Source: Sulfolobales archaeon HS-7 (GTDB lineage: Archaea; Thermoproteota; Thermoprotei_A; Sulfolobales; Sulfolobaceae). From it: 64,000 nt of DNA. Shown here in pieces: positions 2,608-43,613 of the stretch. The DNA is taken from NCBI GenBank assembly GCA_019704295.1, contig AP024596.1:960001-1024000 (forward strand), in the 5' to 3' direction. Within the stretch, counting starts at the first letter, position 1, and every line of letters begins with the position of its first letter. The position numbers and the translations under genes are program-made. Below the pieces are notes generated by a model. It saw only the letters and a program-made list of their open reading frames with translations, had not been told where the DNA came from and did no database searches.

Positions 2608-3027
2608 TTATCCCTTCATTGCCATAAATAGACTAGATTTAGTGGCTTTTAGTCCAGGTTCTCCATGTTCTACCTTCTTCGTAGTTACGGAGAACTCACC
2701 AAGGTAATGACCAAGCATCTCTGGCTGCACTGTAAACTCGACGAACTCCTTTCCGTTATAAACTGACATCTTCAATCCTATCATTTCAGGAAGTATTATC
2801 ATATCCCTTACATGTGTTCTAATCGGCTTAGTTGTATTTGCTCTCCGAATTTTCCTTATTCTAGTTAACAACCTTCTTTGTTGCTCAGTGAAACCCCTTT
2901 TAAGAGTTCGCCTTTGTCGTGCTGGAAGCATCTTTATAAACTCATCCAGTGGCATGTTTACAATCTCGTCTAGTATTTTCCCCCTATATCTAAACTTCTT
3001 CCATTCTGGTGGTATTTCACTGGACAT
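2608..3027 (-). CDS. rps19: 30S ribosomal protein uS19
   Basis: [26 protein letters not shown]. Confidence 0.97.
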
Positions 3028-14531: not shown

Positions 14532-15457
14532 ATGAAATTAGAAGAGGTGACGGAAAGGACGATATACTCTAGGTCACTAATTACGGATATTCCTAAAATG
14601 AAAAGAAAAGAACGGAGGGATTCAAAACGAGTCTTGAGTACGTTGAGTGCAAACCCATTTCCTTAGCAAGTTTACAACAATTATACGATGGAGTTGAATA
14701 CCTTAAAGCCTACGTGGATACTGTAAAGAAATTAGGGGGAAATATACCGACGCGTCCTGATTCGATACCCCAACAACTTTACAATGAAATAGTTAAAGGG
14801 GGAAGACCCAGATTAGGTCCTATACCTATTAAAGGGGCAGATCCATATACTTTGGAAGGTATCGGCGCAAAAGTAATATGTAATAAGAGAGGTGTAGCCA
14901 TTCATGCAATAGTAGATTTCTCTAGTGGCATAAAGATCTTCCTTGCATATCAAAGGGACAAAACTATAGTCGGGGTAGACATAGGTATGAGACATGTTGC
15001 AACAGTTGTCGCGATTAAGGGGACAGATATATACGTCTCGAAATCATTCGGTAATAAGGAAATAATGGGAAAATTAATGAGGTATACAGGCGAACCGCAA
15101 GGTTTGGGATCTAGCGATGAAATAAGAAGGATATTAAAGCCTATTATTAACGATATAGTTAACTATATCGTGGAATTGAATCCTAAAGTGGTCGTTATGG
15201 AAGATTTGCGGAAAGTGAATGGTAGAATAGGGTATGCTCTCAGAACGGTGCAAGATATGCTAATTAAGTCTCTATATGAAAGGGGCGTAAAATACGAGAG
15301 GAGAAGTGCCTATAGTACAAGTAGGATATGTTCAAAATGTGGATATAAGGGTGGAGAACTAATAGGGTCGTTATTTGTTTGCCCAGCATGTGGTTTCACC
15401 GCTGATAGGGACTTTAATGCTGCGTTAAACCTGGCAACAAAAGGGTATTATTCCTAA
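14532..15457 (+). CDS. Compact TnpB-like RuvC + Zn-ribbon protein; 5' part in a different frame (-1 shift near 14595-14610)
   Basis: VGVDIG (RuvC-I), VVMEDL (RuvC-II), TSRICSKCG...CPACG, DRDFNAALN (RuvC-III). The main frame is open from 14597; ATG 14532 lies in another frame. The ORF track start is GTG 14714. Confidence 0.75.
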
Positions 15458-32123: not shown

Positions 32124-33200
32124 TCATTCAACAATTCTCCTAAAAAGGAGGTAGAACACTATATTTGATATTAAGTATAGTAAACCTGTTATTAGAAACG
32201 GAAGATATAAATTATCGATGGAAAAGAAAAATCCTCCTATTGTAGGTCCCATACTTCGCGGTATTGAATCAAATAAGCTGACCAAGGACATTCCTCTCCC
32301 CCTTTCATTCTCGGGAATAACTTTCATGAACATGGATGTCCATAAGGGTTGAGTCATGTTCATAAAGACGTTTCGAAACACGTACACTGTGCCAGCAACT
32401 AATGCTGTCGCGGAAAAAGGCATGTAAAAGAGGAGGGCAATTGCAATAAAATGAAATGTAACAATTGTTTTCAAATTCCCCAGATACTTGCCAATGTATG
32501 GCGATATATACGTGCCAACCGCAAGTGTCAAATTAGATACTGCAAAGAAAGGGCTTATCTCATCGATAGGCGCGTGAAATTTCAAACTAAACCATAAAGA
32601 GAGTAAAGGCAATAACATACCAGCCCCTAATCCTGTCAGGGCCTCAACTGAGAACTTCGATACCGTGCCTATAGAACCTATTTTAGGGGTTATCTTTCTG
32701 GTGCCTTTATATGATTCCCTGACCGGGATCAATGAGATTATACTAACAAGTATAGCAATCTCCTCGATAGCGAACACGTTACTAAATTTTAGAAAGGAAG
32801 GAATTAATGCACCAACAAAAGATGCAACTATGGATAGCGAATTCATAAGTCCGAACGTTTTCTCCAGGTTCCCACCTTTCTCCACTAAGAGCACTGAGTT
32901 CATATTACTCCTTGAGAACAGAAGATATCCTAATGGGATTCTCTCTATTAATAATAAGATTCCGAATGCATAAAGTATTCTAGAAATTATTTGAATTTTC
33001 TTTCTACCAAAAGCGTCACCGAAAATTGAAAATAGATACCCTAGGAAAGCCCCTGAAAGAGTCCCTACAGTTAGAATTATTCCTATTAGGAGAACTGGAA
33101 GGCCTAGTTCATGAAAGTATAATGAGACTATAAGAGAATTAGCTCCCCATGTTATTCCAGTAATGGCCGATGAGAAAATAAGTAAGGACTTTTCATTCAT
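32124..33200 (-). CDS. MFS transporter
   Basis: GDAFGRKK motif A, ERGRG, multiple TM helices. Confidence 0.9.
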   Translation of the reverse strand: MNEKSLLIFSSAITGITWGANSLIVSLYFHELGLPVLLIGIILTVGTLSGAFLGYLFSIFGDAFGRKKIQIISRILYAFGILLLIERIPLGYLLFSRSNMNSVLLVEKGGNLEKTFGLMNSLSIVASFVGALIPSFLKFSNVFAIEEIAILVSIISLIPVRESYKGTRKITPKIGSIGTVSKFSVEALTGLGAGMLLPLLSLWFSLKFHAPIDEISPFFAVSNLTLAVGTYISPYIGKYLGNLKTIVTFHFIAIALLFYMPFSATALVAGTVYVFRNVFMNMTQPLWTSMFMKVIPENERGRGMSLVSLFDSIPRSMGPTIGGFFFSIDNLYLPFLITGLLYLISNIVFYLLFRRIVE

Positions 33201-33249
33201 TAATCTTTACAAAAAGGCTGAGCTGATTAAAAACTTATGAAGCTAACTT

Positions 33250-33480
33250 CTAGTTGATAATAAACCAATCCTTTCTTTGCATACGTTTCATTGCCTGATA
33301 TTCATAGGGATACTCATTTCGCAAGTAGTCCTCAGGAAGTTCAACATCTCCAATATCATTATTCTGAATCCTCTTCTTTCCTCTTATTCCTAATAACATA
33401 AACAACACCGCTAATATATAAATTATCTTAGAAATATTTAAACCTTTCCCCCAAATGTACGATATTATGCTAGAAGTCAC
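33250..33480 (-). CDS. Small membrane-anchored hypothetical protein
   Basis: One TM helix followed by a charged tail; start uncertain. Confidence 0.45.
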   Translation of the reverse strand: MTSSIISYIWGKGLNISKIIYILAVLFMLLGIRGKKRIQNNDIGDVELPEDYLRNEYPYEYQAMKRMQRKDWFIIN

Positions 33481-33676
33481 CGAACATAGTGTTATGCTGT
33501 ATTTAAGAGGTAAAAGTCAAATTAAGATCATATCACTAAATGCCCTGATAATATTAGTAGAATTATACTTTATCTTAATAATATTGTTTTAATGAAATCA
33601 AACCCTTAAGAAGATAGTGTGATTCCCTACATTCCATCGTAAATTGGTTTGATCTTTTGCTTATATCATGATAATA

Positions 33677-34294
33677 GTTAACGCTCAAAATAAAACGAGA
33701 ATGACCCTACTAGCTGGGGCGGACTTACAACTTTCTATAAAGGCTATCATCCTGATTGTCCTCTATCAAATCGCATTTCATATTAGGATTGCTGATTGGA
33801 GGGAAGGCCTACCACTCGCTCACTGGACGTCTCGGAAACAGTTGTTAATATGTAATTAATTTTAATAATTAGATAAAAAATTATAAAACATTCCTAGTAA
33901 AGATTAATTCTTTTGATTGCTAAAATTATGAAATCGGCTTATTAATCTCAGTAAGTAGGGAAATTACTTAACCTTTAAGGTTTAGGTCTGACTAACTGAC
34001 GTCTGTGGCTTAATGAGTTCAAAGTTTACTATTCGGTCTAAACCGTGGACATCGTAGGGCTAAGAGGTCAGCGAAGTTACAAGAACTCTTGTAATCACAT
34101 TAAAGTATTATCCCTGGATTGAGCTTATTCCTAATAAGAATTTAGTTTTTAAATTGACGCTTGTTGCGTAATATACAATGTGTTAATAAAGCTCGCTCTT
34201 TCGAGTCCAGTTATTAAAATAACCTGGAAACTCATACTAAGTAGGTTCCGTATTCCCTTGGGCGGGATCATTCAGTTTTCTTAAGCTCATTAAG
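33677..34294 (-). mobile_element. SMN1-like MITE interrupted by a family A MITE
   Basis: Minus strand: left end CTAT|CTTAATGAG...GATCCC at 34294; CCGAGACG...CTCCAATCAGCA and GTAAGTCCGCCCC...GTAGGG align with 55935-56090. Confidence 0.6.
33838..34185 (-). repeat. Family A MITE ends nested in the SMN1-like element
   Basis: AATATGTAATTAATTTTAATAATTAGATAAAAAATTATAAAAC and TTATTCCTAATAAGAATTTAGTTTTTAAA match family A ends; interior highly decayed. Confidence 0.55.
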
Positions 34295-34375
34295 ATAGAC
34301 GGAAAAGTTTCGGTGTGGAGGAAATCCCAACTAATAGCAAGTTAATCTTGATTAAGGGTGATTGTAATATAGATT

Positions 34376-34651
34376 ATGGGATTAAAGATAACTTACGACG
34401 TGATTGGATATAAACTCAGAGTAGTCTATCATACTGATCCTACGTTAGTAAATCGTGAGGGTGAAGTAATCCTAGAAACAGAGAAATTCTTCTTCCTAGC
34501 GGATCAAGGTAAGAATGTTTTCATGATAAGTAAAAATCAGGGGCTATTTGAAATAACCTCTAATAGTTTTAAATTCTCACTTGATGGTAATAGGATGATG
34601 TCTAAACCGAAGAACAGGATAACGAGGAGGAAAACAGTTGAGCTTGAGTAA
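34376..34651 (+). CDS. rnp1: RNase P protein component 1 (Rpp29/POP4)
   Basis: DVIGYKLRVV.HTDPTL..EGEVILETEK; directly upstream of rps17. Confidence 0.85.
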   Translation: MGLKITYDVIGYKLRVVYHTDPTLVNREGEVILETEKFFFLADQGKNVFMISKNQGLFEITSNSFKFSLDGNRMMSKPKNRITRRKTVELE

Positions 34652-34970
34652 AAACGTTGGTATCATCGGGGTAAAACCTCCTGAGAAAGAATGCAAAGAT
34701 GAAAAATGCCCATATCATGGACATCTGAAAGTAAGGGGTATGGTACTTGAGGGGACAGTTTACCGCTATAGGGCAAATAAAGTTGCAACAATTGTTAAGG
34801 AGTATTTAAAGTATAACCCGAAATATAAGAGGTATGAAAGAAGGACAAGTAAAATACATGCGTATGTACCTCAATGTATTGAAATTAAAGAAGGCGATAG
34901 AGTTATAATAGGAGAAAGTAGACCATTAGCGAAATCAGTAGCATTTGTAGTGGTAGGGAGGGTGAGTTAA
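34638..34970 (+). CDS. rps17: 30S ribosomal protein uS17
   Basis: [26 protein letters not shown]. Confidence 0.97.
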
Positions 34971-34971
34971 A

Positions 34972-35388
34972 ACGTCAGAAAAAATGAACATGACAGGTCC
35001 CAGGTATAGCTATACGCCTGGGATACAACATATGACGAAAGTGAAAGTAGCAGATAACAGCGGAGCAAGGGAGGGAGTAGTAATTGGAGTTTACGGATAT
35101 AGGGGGCACTTGAGAAGAGTTCCCTTCGCCAACATAGCAGATTTAGTACTCATTTCCATCAGAAAAGGCAGTCCAGAAGTCAGAAAGCAGAAATTCAAGG
35201 CAGTGATAGTGAGGCAAAAAATGCCTTTGAGAAGGAGGGATGGGACTTGGATTTCATTTGAGGACAATGCGGTTGTAGTTGTAAATCCTGACGGTACTCC
35301 TAAAGGAACGGAAATAAGAGGACCGGTAGCGAGAGAATCTATAGAGAGATGGCCAAAACTTGCAGGGCTTGCCACAGTAATTATTTAA
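34972..35388 (+). CDS. rpl14: 50S ribosomal protein uL14 (proposed ACG start)
   Basis: [34 protein letters not shown] lies 6 nt after GGGTGA; the first ATG is at 34984. Confidence 0.95.
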
Positions 35389-35401
35389 GAGGTGATAGAG
35401 A

Positions 35402-35791
35402 ATAACCTCTCTAAAACCTGCTAAACAGAGGCTAGCTTTATACAATGTACCTTTACATAGGGCAAATAGATTTCTAACTGCTAAGTTGTCAAGTGAGCTC
35501 GCCGAAAAATATGGAATTAACCGACTTCCAGTAAGGAAAGGAGATACGGTGATGATCTTAAGAGGCGACTTTAGGGGCTCCGAGGGAAAAGTAACTGAAG
35601 TTTTTCCGAAAAAAGGAAGGATTTACATAGAGAACGTAACGATAAAGAAAGTAGATGGTACACCAAAATATGTACCTATACATGCATCGAAGGTAAATAT
35701 AACTAAATTAGATGTAACTGACGATTGGAGAACTAAAGTAATAGAAAGGAAAAAATCTGGAGGTAGGAGGGAAGTAGAAAATGCCAGGTAA
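35402..35791 (+). CDS. rpl24: 50S ribosomal protein uL24 (proposed ATA start)
   Basis: In-frame TSLKPAKQRLALYNVPLH upstream of the track TTG; PVRKGDTV, PIHASKV; in-frame TAG at 35396. Confidence 0.95.
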   Translation: MTSLKPAKQRLALYNVPLHRANRFLTAKLSSELAEKYGINRLPVRKGDTVMILRGDFRGSEGKVTEVFPKKGRIYIENVTIKKVDGTPKYVPIHASKVNITKLDVTDDWRTKVIERKKSGGRREVENAR

Positions 35792-36506
35792 AAAACACGC
35801 GACTAGGTTTGATTCTCCCTGGTTTATAAACTATTCGAAGAAGGAATTCAAGTGGGCAGTAAGATCTTCTCCAGGAACACACAAGAAGACGAAATCTATA
35901 CCGCTAGCCTTTTTCCTTAGAGATTATTTAAAGCTAGCCACAAATCTACGCGAAGCTAAGAAAATTATAGGCAGTCGTTCTATATTAGTTGACGGTAGAG
36001 CTATTGCCAATTATAAGTTTCCATTAGGATTATTCGATAATATATCGTTTCCTAAACAAGACTTACATTATAGAATATACCCAGATAAAATAAGATTTTT
36101 AAGAGTTGAACAGATAAATGCGGAGGAATCTGTAATAAAGTACCTTAAACTGATCAACAAAACTGTTACTGTAGGGGGGAATGTGCAGCTTAACTTCGAT
36201 AATGGATACAACTTACAAGTAAAAAGAGAGGACGAGTTGAGTAAGATTAAGACATTAAGCACAATTAAATATGATTTATCCTCTAAAAAAATAATAGACT
36301 ACTATCCTTTAGAAGAGAATGTACAGGCAATAATTACAGGAGGAAAGAACGTAGGGTTTCAGGGAACTATTGAATCGATAAAAAGGGCCCAATATAAAAC
36401 AAAGAAATATTCAATTGTAACACTGAAAAATAAGGAAGGGACTGCTCAAACTAATATAAACAACATAATGGTATTAGGAGGAAAAGTAAAGGAGGAGGAA
36501 ACATGA
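35781..36506 (+). CDS. rps4e: 30S ribosomal protein eS4
   Basis: SPGTH...SIPL, LREAKKI, VDGR...[15 protein letters not shown]. Confidence 0.96.
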
Positions 36507-37048
36507 CAGAAGAACAGACCTTTGCTCAGCGGAAAAAAAACCCAATGAGAAGAGTACTCTTGGATAAGGTGACAGTAAATATAGGGGTGGGTGAAACTAG
36601 CGAAAAATTACAAAAAGCTTACATGTTGTTACAGGAAATTACGGGTTCAAAGCCGGTTTATACTAAAGCAAAGAAAACTATACGGGACTTCGGTGTGAGA
36701 AAAGGTACCAATATCGGAGTAAAGGTAACTCTTAGGGGAGAAAAAGCGGTCGAATTCTTGAGAAAGGCGTTAGAAGCAATAGGATACCGTCTTAAGGAAA
36801 ATAGCTTCGATAATTATGGTAACGTAGGATTCGGGATAATTGAACATGTTTCAATTCCAGGTACCAGGTACGATCCGGAGGTAGGAATGTTCGGAATGGA
36901 TGTAATTATCACACTTGCCAGACCAGGTTATAGGGTAAGTAGTAGAAGAAGAAATAGGTCTCGAGTTCCAAGGAGACATAAGGTTTCCAAAGAAGAGGCA
37001 ATAGAATTTTTAAGAGAGGAATTCGGTGTAACGATAGTTTCTGGGTGA
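36503..37048 (+). CDS. rpl5: 50S ribosomal protein uL5
   Basis: [31 protein letters not shown]. Confidence 0.97.
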
Positions 37049-37055
37049 ATACGAT

Positions 37056-37220
37056 TTGGGAAAATATCGACCACCAAAAGAGAGAAAACATGGAAGAGGA
37101 GTACAAACGTGTCAGAGATGTGGAAGTTCCGATGGAGTTATTCAGAAATACGGCTTATATCTATGCAGGCAATGTTTTAGAGAAATCGCATATCCACTTG
37201 GGTTTAAAAGGCAGAGGTGA
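37056..37220 (+). CDS. rps14: 30S ribosomal protein uS14 (Zn-binding); absent from the ORF track
   Basis: Manual translation from TTG: [54 protein letters not shown]. Confidence 0.96.
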
Positions 37221-37228
37221 AAGCCAGC

Positions 37229-37630
37229 ATGGTAGTAATTAATCCTGTGGCTAATCTCTTCGCTTCATTATACAATAACGAGATAAGAAGGAATAAATCT
37301 TCACTTGTTGCCCCGTCATCTAAATTACTTATAAATATCCTTAGGACTCTCCAGAAGGAAGGTTATGTAGGGGAATTTGAAGTAATAGATGATGGGCGAT
37401 TTGGAAAATTAAATGTTCAACTTCTGGGTAGAATAAATAAATGTGGGCCGATAACGCCGAGATTCCCTCTGAAATATAGGGAAATGATTGATTTACCCCC
37501 TCACATAAAGAAATTCCTTCCTTCAAAGGAACTTGGAATAATAATAGTCTCAACCCCAAAGGGCGTCATGTCCCACAAGGACGCTGCAAAGGAGAGAATC
37601 GGTGGCATAGCTTTAGGATATGTATACTAG
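37229..37630 (+). CDS. rps8: 30S ribosomal protein uS8
   Basis: [29 protein letters not shown]; ATG 37229 follows a GAGGTGA SD. Confidence 0.97.
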
Positions 37631-38188
37631 GTGATGGTAGTGTTTAGGGCAATTTACATTAAAGAAGAAATTGTAATTCCAACAGACGTAAGTGTAGATG
37701 TGAGTAATAATAAGGTTATAGTCAAAGGAAAGAAGGGAATGATCGATAGGGATTTTTCTCATATGAAAGGAATAATTATTAATAAAGACAACAATAAGAT
37801 TACTATTGAAAGTACTTTTCTAGATAAGGAGAAGAAGGCCAAACTCTATTCCATTATACGTCATATAGAGAATATGTTTACTGGTGTTACCAAGGGGTAT
37901 AAATATTCGCTAAAGGTAGTGTACTCACATTTCCCTATATCTATAAAGCTAGTGGGAGATACCTTACAAGTAACTAATCTAATAGGAGAAAAAAACATAA
38001 GAAAACTGAAGATTCCTAAAGATATTAAAGTTAGTATAAAGGGAGAAGATATAGTAGTTGAGGGTATAGACAAGGAAAAAGTTGGTCAAGTAGCGACGAA
38101 TATAGAGAGGATGACAAGAATTAGGGACTTCGATAGGAGAGTCTTTATGGATGGGATTTTTATATACGGTAAAGAGGTGGGAGATTGA
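37631..38188 (+). CDS. rpl6: 50S ribosomal protein uL6
   Basis: HIENMFTGVTKG, YSHFPI, DRRVFMDGIFI; the true start may be GTG 37640. Confidence 0.96.
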   Translation: MMVVFRAIYIKEEIVIPTDVSVDVSNNKVIVKGKKGMIDRDFSHMKGIIINKDNNKITIESTFLDKEKKAKLYSIIRHIENMFTGVTKGYKYSLKVVYSHFPISIKLVGDTLQVTNLIGEKNIRKLKIPKDIKVSIKGEDIVVEGIDKEKVGQVATNIERMTRIRDFDRRVFMDGIFIYGKEVGD

Positions 38189-38556
38189 ATAATAAAATAA
38201 AAAAAATGAGAAAAAGAATGAGTTTAAAAAGAAAGTTCCTGAGATATAAGTGGCAACGATACTTTAAACTAGAAAGGCAAGGAACCTGGAGAAGAGCAAG
38301 AGGAATAGACAACAAAATAAGGATGAAGAAGAAGGGATGGCCTATGCGACCTACTACAGGTCTTCGTACGATGGTGATGATAAGGGGATATCATCCTTCA
38401 GGCGTTAAATATATTGTCGTAAATAATGAAAAGCAGCTAAAAAAAGCCAAGGAGTTGGGACTTGCAGTATACATTTCATCAAGGATAGGGCTTAACAAAA
38501 AATTAAAGTTAACAAAACTAAGCAATGACCTTGGTATTGAAGTTCTAAACGGGTGA
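38185..38556 (+). CDS. rpl32e: 50S ribosomal protein eL32
   Basis: FLRY, WRRARGIDNKIR, RGYHPSG. Confidence 0.95.
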   Translation: MNNKIKKMRKRMSLKRKFLRYKWQRYFKLERQGTWRRARGIDNKIRMKKKGWPMRPTTGLRTMVMIRGYHPSGVKYIVVNNEKQLKKAKELGLAVYISSRIGLNKKLKLTKLSNDLGIEVLNG

Positions 38557-38560
38557 GAAT

Positions 38561-39019
38561 GTGACAACAGTAAATATCAGAAAAAGGCTTGCTGCGGAAA
38601 TAAAAGGTGTGGGTATAAAGAGAGTAAGGATACCCCCTCAAAATATAGATGAAATAGAGGAGGCATTGACTAGAGAGGACGTAAGAAAGCTCATAGAGGA
38701 CGGAAAAATTATCATTCTTCAAAAGCGAGGACCGAGCAGGAAGAGACACATAGAAAGGGCAAGGAAAAGGAGAGTAAAGAGCGAAAGGCGAGGGCCAGGT
38801 AGTAGAAAAGGAAATAAAAAGACCAGGAGGGAATTAGAGAAAGTTTGGGTTATGAGAGTTAGAAAAATGAGAAAATATCTAAGATATCTGAGGGATAACA
38901 ATCTAATAGAAAGGCGTATATATAGAATATATTACAGAAAGGTAAAGGGCGGTAATTTCAAAAGTCTGACAGAACTGAGAAATTCTCTAATTCAATCTAA
39001 TTATCTAAAAGGTGAGTAG
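38561..39019 (+). CDS. rpl19e: 50S ribosomal protein eL19
   Basis: KRLAAEI, TREDVRKLI, RRGPGSRKG, YRKVKGGNF. Confidence 0.96.
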   Translation: MTTVNIRKRLAAEIKGVGIKRVRIPPQNIDEIEEALTREDVRKLIEDGKIIILQKRGPSRKRHIERARKRRVKSERRGPGSRKGNKKTRRELEKVWVMRVRKMRKYLRYLRDNNLIERRIYRIYYRKVKGGNFKSLTELRNSLIQSNYLKGE

Positions 39020-39020
39020 G

Positions 39021-39605
39021 TTGGTTCAAGGAGCCAGATATAAAGTAAGGTTTAGAAGGAGACGTGAAGGAAAGACGGATTATCATAGGAGGTATACTTA
39101 TGTATTGTCTAAGGTGACAAGGATTGTAATAAGAAGAACAAACAAATATATTTACGCACGAGTAATGACGTTTAATCCTAAAGGGGACGAGGTTGTAGTT
39201 AGCTCGTCTTCAATAGAACTTAAGAAGAAATATCAATGGAAGGGGGATGGAAAGAACTTATCTGCATGTTATCTTACAGGCTACTTACTTGGAAAAAAAG
39301 CTGAGAAGTTAAACATTGAAAAACTAGTCGTCGATTTGGGACCGTTTAAGGTGAGAGAAGGAGGTCGTATTTACGCAGTTATAAAGGGGATTCAGGACGC
39401 AGGTTTGAAGTTTGCTTTTGGGGATGTGGAGATTGACATGAATAGAATAAGAGGAGAACATATAGCGCAATATGCGAAGACTCTAAAGGAGACGCAGCCT
39501 GAAAAGTACCAACAGTTATTCTCAAAATACTTGAAGGAAGGATTAAATCCAGAGGAACTCACTGAACATTTTGACCAAATCTTCAGTAAAATAAGAGGGG
39601 AGTGA
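39021..39605 (+). CDS. rpl18: 50S ribosomal protein uL18
   Basis: RRRREGKTDYHRR, NLSACYLTGYLLG, RIRGEHI; TTG 39021 follows a GGTGA SD (track start 39012). Confidence 0.96.
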   Translation: MVQGARYKVRFRRRREGKTDYHRRYTYVLSKVTRIVIRRTNKYIYARVMTFNPKGDEVVVSSSSIELKKKYQWKGDGKNLSACYLTGYLLGKKAEKLNIEKLVVDLGPFKVREGGRIYAVIKGIQDAGLKFAFGDVEIDMNRIRGEHIAQYAKTLKETQPEKYQQLFSKYLKEGLNPEELTEHFDQIFSKIRGE

Positions 39606-39609
39606 AATA

Positions 39610-40251
39610 ATGGAGGAAGTAAAACCTGTCAATCTGGAGGAATGGAAACCAAGAACTAGATTAGGAAATCTAGTTAAGGAGGGAAAAATAACCTCAATTA
39701 AGGAGATATTTGAGAGAAATGAACCTATACTCGAACCTGAAATAGTGGATGCCCTTCTTCCTAAATTAAAGTACGAAATAATTGATATTAAAATAGTGCA
39801 AAAGCAAACTGACGCAGGGGAGATATCCAAGTATAAAGTAATGTTGATAATGGGGAATAATGATGGCTACGTCGGAATAGGACTGGGTAAAGCTAGACAG
39901 CTTAGAGTCGCAATTCAAAAAGCGATAACTGACGGAAAATTACATATAATCCCTATAAGGAGAGGATGTGGAAGTTGGGAGTGCAGTTGCGGAGAGCCAC
40001 ATAGTATTCCGTTTAGGGTAACGGGAAAAGCGGGTAGTGTTGAGGTGGACTTGCTTCCAGCACCGAAGGGGACGGGAAATGCGGTAGGTTCTGTATTGAA
40101 GACACTAATGCAGTATGCGGGAATAAAAGATGTATGGTCTACAAGTAAAGGAGAGACGAGAACGACAGAGAACTTCGTAAAGGCTGGATTCAATGCTTTA
40201 TATAACACCACGAAGTTTCTTACAACCACAGATTGGGCGAGGAAGAGGTAA
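39610..40251 (+). CDS. rps5: 30S ribosomal protein uS5
   Basis: WKPRTRLG, QKQTDAG, RRGCGSWEC, PAPKGTG. Confidence 0.97.
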   Translation: MEEVKPVNLEEWKPRTRLGNLVKEGKITSIKEIFERNEPILEPEIVDALLPKLKYEIIDIKIVQKQTDAGEISKYKVMLIMGNNDGYVGIGLGKARQLRVAIQKAITDGKLHIIPIRRGCGSWECSCGEPHSIPFRVTGKAGSVEVDLLPAPKGTGNAVGSVLKTLMQYAGIKDVWSTSKGETRTTENFVKAGFNALYNTTKFLTTTDWARKR

Positions 40252-40257
40252 GGGTTA

Positions 40258-40725
40258 ATGGTATTAATTGCCACGATTAGGGTTAGGGGCACAGTTGGAA
40301 TACCTCACGATATCGAAAATACGTTAATTAGACTCCGATTACTAAGGAAGTATTCGGCCATGGTATATCCGGATAAGAAGGAAATAATGGGTATGATAAA
40401 ATACGTATCTGGATACATTACGTGGGGTGAGGTCAATGAGGAAGCTCTATCGAAGTTACTTTTGAGAGCGAGAATGAAAGACAATAGCAGATTCAATGCA
40501 GAGTCGTTACAAAAAGTATTAGGAATGTCTCATGAAGAGCTTATTGATAACTTAATTCAAGGAAAGGTATACCTTCATAAACTAAATAACGCATTTCGTC
40601 TACCAATAGGACTTAGGCCGCCAAAATACGGTTTCAGCGGTAAAATTAACATTCCGTTTAATGCTGGAGGAGAGACAGGATATCGCGGTAATGCAATAAA
40701 TGATTTAATCCTATCAATGACATAA
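40258..40725 (+). CDS. rpl30: 50S ribosomal protein uL30
   Basis: IRVRG, YITWGE, LRPPKYGF, GETGYRG. Confidence 0.95.
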   Translation: MVLIATIRVRGTVGIPHDIENTLIRLRLLRKYSAMVYPDKKEIMGMIKYVSGYITWGEVNEEALSKLLLRARMKDNSRFNAESLQKVLGMSHEELIDNLIQGKVYLHKLNNAFRLPIGLRPPKYGFSGKINIPFNAGGETGYRGNAINDLILSMT

Positions 40726-40740
40726 TGGAGGGGGGAAATT

Positions 40741-41166
40741 ATGGTAGTCAGACACGAGAAGAGGAGTAGGAAGTTAAGGGGAAGTAGAAGGATGGGCTGG
40801 GGATTGCAGAAACAACACAGGAACAGAGGAAAAAGAGGCGGAAGACAGATAGGTATGGACAAAGAGAAATTTTCGTGGACGGTTAAATATGCTATGAACT
40901 GGTATGGAAAAAGAGGATTTGTAAATCCAACAACTAAGGTGGAAAACGCAGTATCATTAAGAAATGTAATTCAAATGATTCTTAGCGGAAAACTCTCTCC
41001 GGAGACTGAGAAAAACGAGAAAGTATATGATCTAATAAAGTCTGGATATGACAAATTACTCGGAGGGGGAAGTCCTCCTTTTCCCATAGTTGTGAAAACG
41101 AAGAAAATAACGGAAAAAGCAAAGAGGGCAATTGAAGAGAAAGGTGGAAAAGTTATTTTATCCTAA
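40741..41166 (+). CDS. rpl15: 50S ribosomal protein uL15
   Basis: SRKLRGSRRMGWG, GKRGG, YGKRGF, KLLGGG. Confidence 0.96.
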   Translation: MVVRHEKRSRKLRGSRRMGWGLQKQHRNRGKRGGRQIGMDKEKFSWTVKYAMNWYGKRGFVNPTTKVENAVSLRNVIQMILSGKLSPETEKNEKVYDLIKSGYDKLLGGGSPPFPIVVKTKKITEKAKRAIEEKGGKVILS

Positions 41167-41192
41167 TTAACTGCTTTTTATGTAGGATATAA

Positions 41193-42578
41193 ATGGCGTC
41201 GTTTGTAGACATCTTGTCAGAATTGGGAACTTATTTGCCAGCTGTGACTAAACCTAAGCAGAAGCCTACTTTAGGGAACAAACTGTTATGGACAGCTATT
41301 GCATTAGCTATATACCTTGTAATGGCCTCAGTCCCGTTGTATGGAGTAACCTCTAGTTCTCTGTTTAGTCAGTTTTTAGCGGAGGAGATAATTTTTGCAT
41401 CTACTGCTGGAACTCTGGCACAACTGGGAATAGGTCCTATAATTACCGCCGGATTAATAATGCAAATCTTAGTTGGCTCTAAGTTACTGGATATGGATCT
41501 CAACTCAGATGAGGATAAAGCGAAGTTCACCACATCACAGAAAGGTTTAGCTTTCATCTTTATATTAGTAGAGTCGTTCTTATTTGGCTACGTACTTACT
41601 CGTAATAGTTCACTAACTATAGGACTAATCGTTGCTGGTCAGCTTATAGTTGCAACGTTTCTTATACTGCTCCTAGATGAGTTGATACAAAAGGGATGGG
41701 GTCTTGGTTCTGGAGTAAGCCTTTTCATACTCGCAGGTGTAGTGAAACTAATATTTTGGGACATGTTCGGAATAACGGCTCAGGCTTCCCAAGATTTACC
41801 CATAGGTTTTTTCCCAACGCTAGTTTCTACCCTCGCTAGTGGCAAAGGAATACTAAACGTGTTCGTAGACTTTACTAAACCTTTCCAGCCTGATTTAGTG
41901 GGACTCGTATCGACAATAGGACTAATTGTTTTACTAGTTTACCTTACAGCGATGAAAATAGAGATTCCTGTAACCACCCAAAGACTAAGAGGGATTAGAA
42001 CTACAATACCGCTTAGTTTTCTTTATGTTAGCAGTATACCAGTGATATTTGTTAGTGTTCTTGCCTCAGATATTGGTCTATTCGGTTCAATAGCGTCTTA
42101 CTTTAATCCTTCTATATCAAGCGTTTTTACCACAATAGAAAACATATTCATTTATCCACCTAACAATATTCCCCATAGTGTTTACGCATTGGTTTTGGAT
42201 CCCCTAGGTGCTCTTGAATATGGTGCAGTATTTATACTGCTGTCTCTTGTGTTCGGCATACTTTGGGTGGATGTAGCAGGATTAGATCCTTCCACGCAAG
42301 CAAGAAATCTGATAGACTCCGGAGTAGAAATTCCTGGAATGCGGGCTAATCCAAAAGTTTTAGAAAACATTTTGGGAAAGTACATATATCCCCTTGCATT
42401 CTTCAGTTCACTTATAGTGGCAGTAATAGCGATATTTGCGACTTACTTAGGAGCTTATGGAACTGGTGTCGGGATATTACTTGCGGTAACAATAGCGCAA
42501 CAATATTACAGTATACTTGCTTATGAGAGATCACTCGAGATGTATCCATTATTAAAACGGTTAATTGGTGAAGAGTAA
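41193..42578 (+). CDS. secY: Protein translocase SecY/Sec61-alpha
   Basis: [48 protein letters not shown]. Confidence 0.98.
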
Positions 42579-43168
42579 TGAACTTGGGAATAGTAACTGG
42601 TATTCCAGGCGTAGGAAAGACAACCGTACTAGGTGAGGTTGAAAAATTGAGCAAAGAAAAGAACATTGAAGTTCTCATTATGAACTACGGTAACTACATG
42701 TTGAATACTGCAATAAATATGGGGTTTGTTAAAGATAGGGATGAAATTAGAAAACTCCCTCTGACCTCACAAAAGAAATTACAATATGAGGCAGCTACCA
42801 ATATAATACACGATGCGTCAAAATTGGAGGACAAAGGAATAGCACTCTTAGATACACATGCAATAATTAAAACACCATCTGGATATTGGCCAGGCTTACC
42901 AAAACATGTTATTGAAATACTAAACCCTAAGGTTATTTTTCTAATAGAATCTGAACCTGAGGTTATTCTAAACAGACAGAAAGGTGATTCAACCCGTAAA
43001 AGAGCTGATTACAATGATATCGAAGTAATTAAAGAATCAATTTCTTTTGCTAGATACGCTGCAATGGCGTCAGCGGTATTGGTAGGTGCCTCAGTAAAAA
43101 TAATAAAGAACGAGGAGGGAACTCCATCAAAAGCTGCAGAGGAAATACTTAACGTTATGATAGGGTAG
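42578..43168 (+). CDS. adkA: Archaeal adenylate kinase
   Basis: [33 protein letters not shown]. Confidence 0.96.
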
Positions 43169-43175
43169 CCTCCTA

Positions 43176-43613
43176 ATGATATTACCAGTTATTATTGCAA
43201 TTCTTCTTGCATTCTTATCTAATTTCATAGTATATTTGCTAGGAAAACTCTATATTGATAAAAAAATTAACACTACTCTTAATAACATTTATTCTATTGA
43301 TACAAACGTAGAGAGAATAGTTTCTCCCAAAAGAAAAGATAGAAAAATACGAATAATGTCTAGGAGAATATCCCGATATAGAAACACCCTCTTTAAATAT
43401 AACATGTATAAGACGATATCACTAGTCCTACTATATTTTACGATTCTCACAATCATATCGGATTACATAAAAGGAGCGGTTATAATACCAATACCTAATC
43501 AGGTAATAGATGGTAAGCCTGGATTTCTTACAATTCCAAATGGTGCATATCTCATATTCTTAATAGCTTTTTTGAGCTTCCTATGGTTATCGATAAGACC
43601 TATAGGTAAGTGA
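43176..43613 (+). CDS. Membrane protein, probable DUF106/EMC3-TMCO1-like
   Basis: TM / basic coil / TM / TM layout; conserved position after adk. Confidence 0.6.
   Translation: MILPVIIAILLAFLSNFIVYLLGKLYIDKKINTTLNNIYSIDTNVERIVSPKRKDRKIRIMSRRISRYRNTLFKYNMYKTISLVLLYFTILTIISDYIKGAVIIPIPNQVIDGKPGFLTIPNGAYLIFLIAFLSFLWLSIRPIGK

Follow-up and report, generated by a model that had tools for sequence, protein, structure and literature searches.

Candidate Near-Cognate Starts, Led by Shine-Dalgarno Sequences, in the Adjacent Ribosomal Protein Genes rpl14 and rpl24 of a Sulfolobaceae Genome

Introduction

Shine-Dalgarno (SD)-directed initiation at near-cognate codons has been described for several bacterial genes, including infC of E. 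coli (AUU) and infC (AUA), ccpN (AUA), cvfC1 (AUU), and citZ (AUA) of S. aureus (PMC4705826; PMC13009471). The near-cognate starts of S. aureus give about 10-30% of the output of AUG (PMC13009471). In eukaryotes, initiation at CUG, ACG, and AUU is policed by eIF1, the homologue of archaeal aIF1 (PMC4705826). For archaea, the same source, which cites Hasenohrl 2009, states that AUU was rejected by S. solfataricus aIF1 in vitro (PMC4705826).

An earlier note on the DNA analysed here proposed that two adjacent ribosomal protein genes, rpl14 and rpl24, start at ACG and ATA, respectively, with the codons positioned by SD sequences, and that these starts possibly tune the stoichiometry of the proteins or sense aIF1. 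Sulfolobus is the main in vitro model of archaeal translation initiation. In the literature searched, we came across no account of Sulfolobales genes, from this model clade for archaeal initiation, that naturally start at ATA or ACG. We give here the evidence for each start, compare both junctions with those of relatives, and set them beside other near-cognate starts of the family.

Results

The Operon and Its Initiation Signals

The window, i.e., the whole stretch of 64,000 nucleotides analysed, is G000:C1:960001-1024000 of the Sulfolobaceae genome G000, a closed single contig of 2.15 Mb with 39.6% G+C. Its genus is represented by one species only within the genome set. The marker-gene completeness of this genome is 91.3% despite the closed contig, and one possible reason is that gene calls are cut short where starts are non-canonical. 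The usual ribosomal-protein operon of archaea occupies positions 34376-43600 of the window (rnp1, rps17, rpl14, rpl24, rps4e, rpl5, rps14, rps8, rpl6 and onward to secY), and the S10-type operon with rps19 and its neighbours is separate, on the minus strand near position 3000. The roughly 0.9 kb 5' of the operon (33480-34376) contain a single ORF of at least 60 aa, with a length of 63 aa. No Rfam family, including the ribosomal-protein leaders, was found at 33000-35600.

The 3' end of the 16S rRNA is GGATCACCTCA. At the canonical starts of the genome, the SD spacing peaks at 4-7 nt and clusters within 4-9 nt, and 6 nt after GGTGA is the modal spacing of SD-led genes in both the operon and the genome. 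As shown in Table 1, ACG 34972 follows GGGTGA and ATA 35402 follows GAGGTGA at this same distance of 6 nt, and every base was as the earlier note had described it. The note had also compared this layout with that of rps19 and pointed to TTG and GTG starts in neighbouring genes. Both points were confirmed, since the start of rps19, near 3027 on the minus strand, is an ATG 6 nt past GGTGA, and TTG and GTG starts were seen in the operon.

Two other frames of the window were recorded. A DNA methylase frame (PF01555, 22967-23812, plus strand) opens with ATT, 6 nt past AAGGTGA; an ATG lies 10 codons downstream of this ATT, and the Pfam domain runs from residue 26. A TnpB/Cas12f-like ORF (14597-15454, plus strand) carries a C-terminal PF07282 domain, and the alignment with its orthologue in a second family genome, G012, reaches 24 residues 5' of the first canonical codon. 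In this ORF, ACG 14603 is preceded by GGAGGGA.

Table 1. Features of the rpl14 and rpl24 start regions (window positions) and other candidate near-cognate starts of the genome (contig positions).
Feature	Position	Strand	Basis or remark
rps17 (uS17) gene, TTG start	34638..34970	+	ORF list, operon order
Shine-Dalgarno GGGTGA	34960..34965	+	6 nt 5' of ACG 34972, 18 nt 5' of ATG 34984; 16S tail GGATCACCTCA
ACG, ancestral uL14 start-codon position, candidate near-cognate start	34972..34974	+	Alignment with relatives
ATG, alternative uL14 start as in public annotation, 134 aa	34984..34986	+	Met5 codon, present in several relatives too
Coding region of rpl14 (uL14) counted from ACG, 138 codons and the TAA stop	34972..35388	+	Pfam PF00238
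Extended Shine-Dalgarno GAGGTGAT	35389..35396	+	8 nt complementary to 16S 3' end; strongest SD of the operon
In-frame TAG closing the rpl24 frame, two codons 5' of ATA	35396..35398	+	Sequence
ATA, ancestral uL24 start-codon position, most likely start codon	35402..35404	+	Alignment with relatives, colinearity with 8hku
Coding region of rpl24 (uL24) counted from ATA, 129 codons and the stop	35402..35791	+	Pfam PF16906 and KOW
TTG, first canonical codon in the rpl24 frame, public start (101 aa)	35486..35488	+	No SD; removes 28 conserved residues
DUF2250, SD-led ATT	G000:C1 68127	+	Pfam domain start
L30e, SD-led ATT	G000:C1 765199	-	Canonical in relatives
Rpo8, SD-led ACG	G000:C1 839633	+	Canonical in relatives
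ABC ATPase, SD-led ACG	G000:C1 1562405	-	Pfam domain start
PDCD5-like, SD-led ACG	G000:C1 1800987	+	Borderline Pfam
TruD, SD-led ATT	G000:C1 2001721	-	Borderline Pfam

The Start of rpl24

The rpl24 frame reads TAG, AGA, ATA (35402), and then 27 codons (TSLKPAKQRLALYNVPLHRANRFLTAKL) before TTG 35486. All 27 codons were checked and, as the earlier note had stated, there is no ATG, GTG, or TTG among them. GAGGTGA occupies 35389-95, and the 6 nt are counted from GGTGA to ATA. Counted from ATA, residues 3-117 of the protein match positions 1-82 of the 82-position PF16906 profile (E 8e-27), and residues 46-77 match the KOW domain (E 5e-10). Moreover, the same count makes the protein colinear with S. 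acidocaldarius uL24 in the solved 50S ribosome (8hku), with residues 3-119 falling on 3-119 (E 8e-35). TTG 35486 corresponds to residue 29 and is the first canonical codon past the PF16906 domain start at residue 3. None of the canonical codons in this frame is able to yield the conserved N-terminus, and ATA is the sole route to the full protein.

The conservation of this segment was then compared with that of the remainder of the protein. The identity to relatives was 0.52 for residues 2-28 and 0.58 for residues 29-118, and the consensus residue was retained in 11 of 14 and 46 of 58 strongly conserved columns, respectively. Residues 2-28 are thus as conserved as the remainder, which indicates that the segment stayed under selection, although this conservation is weak evidence if the start mutations are very recent. 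Taken together, the alignments and the domain matches suggest that ATA 35402 is very probably the uL24 start codon.

The public gene calls give truncated forms of uL24. If these calls were right, the protein would be made from TTG 35486 (101 aa) or ATG 35552 (79 aa), and the upstream 84 nt would be a recently orphaned remnant; ATA 35402 is unique to one lineage, so the change could indeed be recent. However, TTG 35486 has no SD, while the strongest SD of the operon stands 6 nt 5' of ATA 35402. A truncated protein would also lack roughly the first 20 positions of the PF16906 profile, among them the KPxKQR...PLH segment, which does not vary between relatives, and the N-terminal segment shows no excess divergence, stop, or frameshift. 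We consider such a truncation very unlikely.

Translation running on from rpl14 into rpl24 by frameshift or readthrough was also considered and rejected, because TAA 35386 and TAG 35396, the latter in frame, block the way.

The Start of rpl14

The stop codon TAA of rps17 lies at 34968-70, and a single nucleotide separates it from ACG 34972. In the rpl14 frame, TGA 34963-65, which is inside the SD GGGTGA, is followed by GTT AAA ACG(34972) TCA GAA AAA ATG(34984). The earlier note had given the N-terminus of Sulfolobus uL14, and the relatives agree with it: they read M(S/P)EK...G.RK..TPG.QH, codon for codon with ACG-SEK.... The PF00238 domain covers residues 18-137 of uL14 (profile positions 2-121 of 122, E 6e-38), which is a full-length family match. 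Only four residues (T/M-S-E-K) precede ATG 34984, and they are outside this domain. A start at ATG 34984 would thus cost uL14 four residues of a lineage-specific extension. On the sequence, the choice between ACG 34972 and ATG 34984 as the uL14 start is roughly even.

It is quite possible, at somewhat less than even chance, that uL14 is made only from ATG 34984 as a protein of 134 aa. The ancestral start would then be lost and ACG silent, and the ribosomes ending at the rps17 stop 14 nt upstream would reinitiate at ATG 34984. This codon is in frame, is the publicly annotated start, and encodes Met in several relatives as well; with the Pfam L14 domain running only from residue 18, a start there would lose nothing essential. 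On the other hand, its distance of 18 nt from the SD is beyond the 4-9 nt cluster of canonical starts, and the SEK codons after ACG 34972 are unaltered. ACG at the SD+6 position is moreover the start of SucD in all 30 family genomes described below, and the uL14 of one relative has no canonical start until residue 60.

Orthologous Junctions in Relatives

The rpl14 and rpl24 junctions were compared in G000 and 43 further genomes of the family (44 in all), in 24 loci from metagenomes, and in more distantly related genomes. At the uL14 start position, the 43 other family genomes had ATG in 33, GTG in 8, TTG in 1, and ATT in 1, i.e., a canonical codon in 42 of 43. At the uL24 start position, the 38 other family genomes counted (five Metallosphaera genomes, with N-termini not settled by extrapolation, are left out) had ATG in 34, TTG in 3, and in one case ACG with an in-frame ATG two codons upstream. 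The metagenome loci were canonical at both sites in 24 of 24 cases, with ATG or GTG for uL14 and ATG throughout for uL24. The nearest relative (L318, 84% uL14 identity) had ATG at both sites: its uL14 junction is GGTGAGCTGA ATG CCT GAG AAG ATG AAC ATG..., and its uL24 junction is GAGGTGATGCCTA ATG GTT TCA GGG AAA CCT.

This family-wide alignment, which the earlier note had asked for, placed both codons at the Met1 position of about 70 loci, so the pattern is not due to chance. The codons themselves are not conserved in evolution, ACG in uL14 and ATA in uL24 being unique to the G000 lineage among the approximately 70 loci per gene. These results indicate that an ancestral ATG changed to ACG in rpl14 and to ATA in rpl24, by one transition each and privately in this lineage.

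The single ATT among the uL14 starts belongs to the MAG ZMQL_201912_bins_5 of another genus (L012, the same locus as L041). Its ancestral start position is ATT, 6 nt past AGGAGGTGG, and the first ATG, GTG, or TTG of this uL14 is found at residue 60.

In another relative (L099 of G008), the ancestral uL24 start position is ACG, and an in-frame GTG ATG stands two codons upstream, within the SD. It seems that the start of this uL24 has moved.

Public Records and Accuracy of the Bases

In the NCBI records, uL24 is called with 101 aa from TTG 35486 and uL14 with 134 aa from ATG 34984. The gene calls on a 2658-b contig that Logan assembled independently from a public run are 79 aa for uL24 and 118 aa for uL14. 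A full-length ATG version of the G000 uL24 was absent from a collection of 15 billion proteins, and metagenome contigs scanned for the exact pattern of the ATA site gave no match.

ACG and ATA are each a single transition away from ATG, and the marker-gene completeness of only 91% in one closed contig could be read as a sign of sequencing errors. A base-call or assembly error that hides a true ATG at one or both positions is nevertheless highly improbable. The independent Logan assembly likewise gave only truncated calls for uL24 and uL14. Near-cognate starts at conserved positions recur in 30 independently sequenced genomes (FEN1 and SucD), and such cases are no commoner in G000 than in a 99%-complete relative (18 vs. 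17). Furthermore, errors are not expected to target start codons specifically.

Near-Cognate Starts in the Family and in the Genome

Two essential genes with near-cognate starts across the family were found. The start codon of FEN1 in 30 Sulfolobaceae genomes is ATA in 28, ATT in 1, and ATC in 1, and lies 6 nt past AGGTGA (G000:C1:1776233-1777276, minus strand; family loci L103-L132). This ATA aligns to Met1 of the FEN1 of P. horikoshii (Pyrococcus), and the S. solfataricus FEN1 crystal construct 2izo begins 5 residues later, inside the conserved N-terminus. The start of SucD, the alpha subunit of succinyl-CoA ligase, is ACG in 30 of 30 family genomes, 6 nt past (A)GGTGA (G000:C1:887679-888521, minus strand; family loci L133-L162). 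The first canonical codon of SucD is 25 codons in, and a start there would delete the CoA-binding glycine loop. The conservation of these two starts, together with the ATT-start uL14 of the MAG, indicates that SD-led ATA and ACG starts work in Sulfolobaceae, uL14 included.

A genome-wide test covered open frames of 80 codons or more; for every codon 5' of the first canonical one, it asked whether an SD of 5 nt or longer stood at a distance of 5-7 nt. Such an SD stood before 29 of 2392 ATA, ATT, ATC, or ACG codons in G000, compared with 121 of 20652 other codons (OR 2.1, p 0.001), and the excess at near-cognate codons corresponds to approximately 15 genes. In raw counts of GGTGA-N(d)-codon, no preferred spacing emerged, not even for ATG, since GGTGA falls mostly inside genes.

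Pfam domains that begin 5' of any canonical start were found in G000 for SucD, an ABC ATPase, and Rpo8 (all ACG), FEN1 (ATA), and L30e and DUF2250 (both ATT), while PDCD5, TruD, and transketolase were borderline by this measure (Table 1). L30e and Rpo8 have canonical starts in relatives, so several cases are private to the G000 lineage. A 7-of-7 SD match was seen at 3 of 11 validated near-cognate starts and at 8 of 151 canonical starts, which is suggestive only of a tendency of near-cognate starts toward longer SDs.

Two further ORFs with conserved sequence ahead of a canonical codon were noted. In FtsY (G000:C1:1803138-1804106, plus strand), the conserved CFDKIKKAF... starts 68 residues ahead of any in-frame canonical codon. 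A wHTH-type regulator-like ORF (G000:C1:1970418-1971071, plus strand) has GTT where G012 has ATG, with 80 conserved residues 5' of the first canonical codon and no SD; its sequence is compatible with a leaderless non-canonical start, which it may represent.

Comparison With a Second Family Genome

To place these counts, G000 was compared with G012, a relative of 1,840,348 b rebuilt from 93 stretches, on the basis of 1283 shadow-filtered reciprocal best open frames. Orthologues were scored when at least 8 residues of conserved sequence lay 5' of the first canonical codon while the partner was canonical. There were 18 such orthologues in G000 and 17 in G012. About 6 and 7 of these, respectively, had both an SD and, at the corresponding position, a near-cognate codon. 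In 22 cases, some of which are artefacts (rRNA, conserved promoters), the extension 5' of the canonical codon was found in both genomes. The SD-led near-cognate cases shared by the two genomes are FEN1, SucD, and about four probable others. The rate of near-cognate starts is approximately 1% of genes in both G000 and G012.

The idea that G000 is unusually rich in such starts was ruled out by this reciprocal comparison (18 vs. 17).

Discussion

The best explanation of the locus, which we hold to be likely on the sequence evidence, is that full-length uL24 is made from an SD-led ATA, that uL14 is probably made from ACG in whole or in part, and that the codon changes are tolerated drift. In the G000 lineage, the ancestral ATG of each gene would have been mutated by one transition. 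The 30S subunit would be held by the 8-nt SD duplex 6 nt 5' of AUA, and Met-tRNAi would presumably pair with AUA at the cost of one mismatch and give full-length uL24. ACG would probably yield all or part of uL14 likewise, and ATG 34984 may act as a second start. All the near-cognate codons involved differ from AUG at a single position. The distance from the upstream stop codon is 1 nt for ACG 34972 and 13 nt for ATA 35402, and a strong SD and termination-reinitiation coupling may offset the weak codons. The proposal of SD-anchored non-canonical initiation holds unequally for the two genes as far as the present evidence goes: the ATA of rpl24 is well supported by the N-terminus, the spacing, and the FEN1 and SucD starts, and the ACG of rpl14 is plausible only, with ATG 34984 four codons on and the Pfam L14 domain whole.

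Two candidate causes within the initiation apparatus were rejected. There is a single normal initiator tRNA (A1:U72, CAU), with no initiator-like tRNA having another anticodon, which excludes a special initiator. An altered or oddly started aIF1 is likewise excluded, as its gene is intact and begins with ATG.

The earlier note had suggested a possible purpose of these starts, and the weak codons could be adaptive if they set the output of uL14 and uL24 or made it respond to the level of aIF1, as AUU does for infC and IF3. The two cases are adjacent in one operon, and ATA is preceded by an extended SD, a feature shared with the regulated cases of S. aureus (PMC13009471). But ACG in uL14 and ATA in uL24 each occur just once among the approximately 70 loci compared for each gene. 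The nearest relative has ATG at both sites, and the aIF1 and initiator tRNA of G000 look ordinary. Moreover, chance alone can produce two neighbouring cases when about 1% of genes, and a larger share of SD-led genes in operons, start in this way. We found no support for stoichiometry tuning or aIF1 sensing and regard an adaptive role as unlikely. Since the codons are private to the lineage and absent in the nearest relative, a conserved regulatory role is unsupported and tolerated drift is the simpler reading. An argument against initiation at ACG and ATA is that an output of about 10-30% of AUG, by analogy with S. aureus, would fit awkwardly with stoichiometric ribosomal proteins.

On balance, we think that Sulfolobaceae ribosomes routinely accept AUA, AUU, AUC, ACG, and CUG when an SD, often adjacent to the preceding stop codon, positions them, in about 1% of genes. 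If this is true, it is in tension with the in vitro rejection of AUU by aIF1 cited above. There are also consequences for annotation. The public record strips 28 conserved residues from the uL24 of G000, and gene finders limited to ATG, GTG, and TTG will likewise shorten approximately 1% of Sulfolobaceae genes, FEN1 included. In addition, natural SD-led ATA and ACG starts are ready substrates for studying the limits of aIF1 discrimination and its override by SD strength or coupling.

Among the known systems, the bacterial infC-type starts share with this locus a single-mismatch codon at the SD-defined P-site position and, in uL24, an intact conserved ORF that has no canonical start. They often have a long SD, and the ATA of uL24 has one of 8 nt. 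They differ in several respects: the apparatus here is archaeal (aIF1, aIF1A, and aIF2) instead of IF3, and ACG is absent from the start codons of NCBI table 11. The genes here encode stoichiometric ribosomal proteins, whereas those of the bacterial systems encode regulators, and the codons here are unconserved, with no autoregulatory link known. Eukaryotic near-cognate initiation is similar in that Met-tRNAi is used on a single-mismatch codon under a homologous fidelity factor, but it depends on scanning and Kozak context, while SD pairing and the upstream stop position the codon here. The closest systems are the FEN1 (ATA) and SucD (ACG) starts of Sulfolobaceae, which share their codons, their layout of AGGTGA plus 6 nt, and their translation machinery with the present ones. 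The FEN1 and SucD starts are conserved in every genus, unlike the codons of rpl14 and rpl24, which are confined to a single lineage. The rpl14 and rpl24 starts are therefore lineage-specific examples of a family-wide habit and not a new mechanism.
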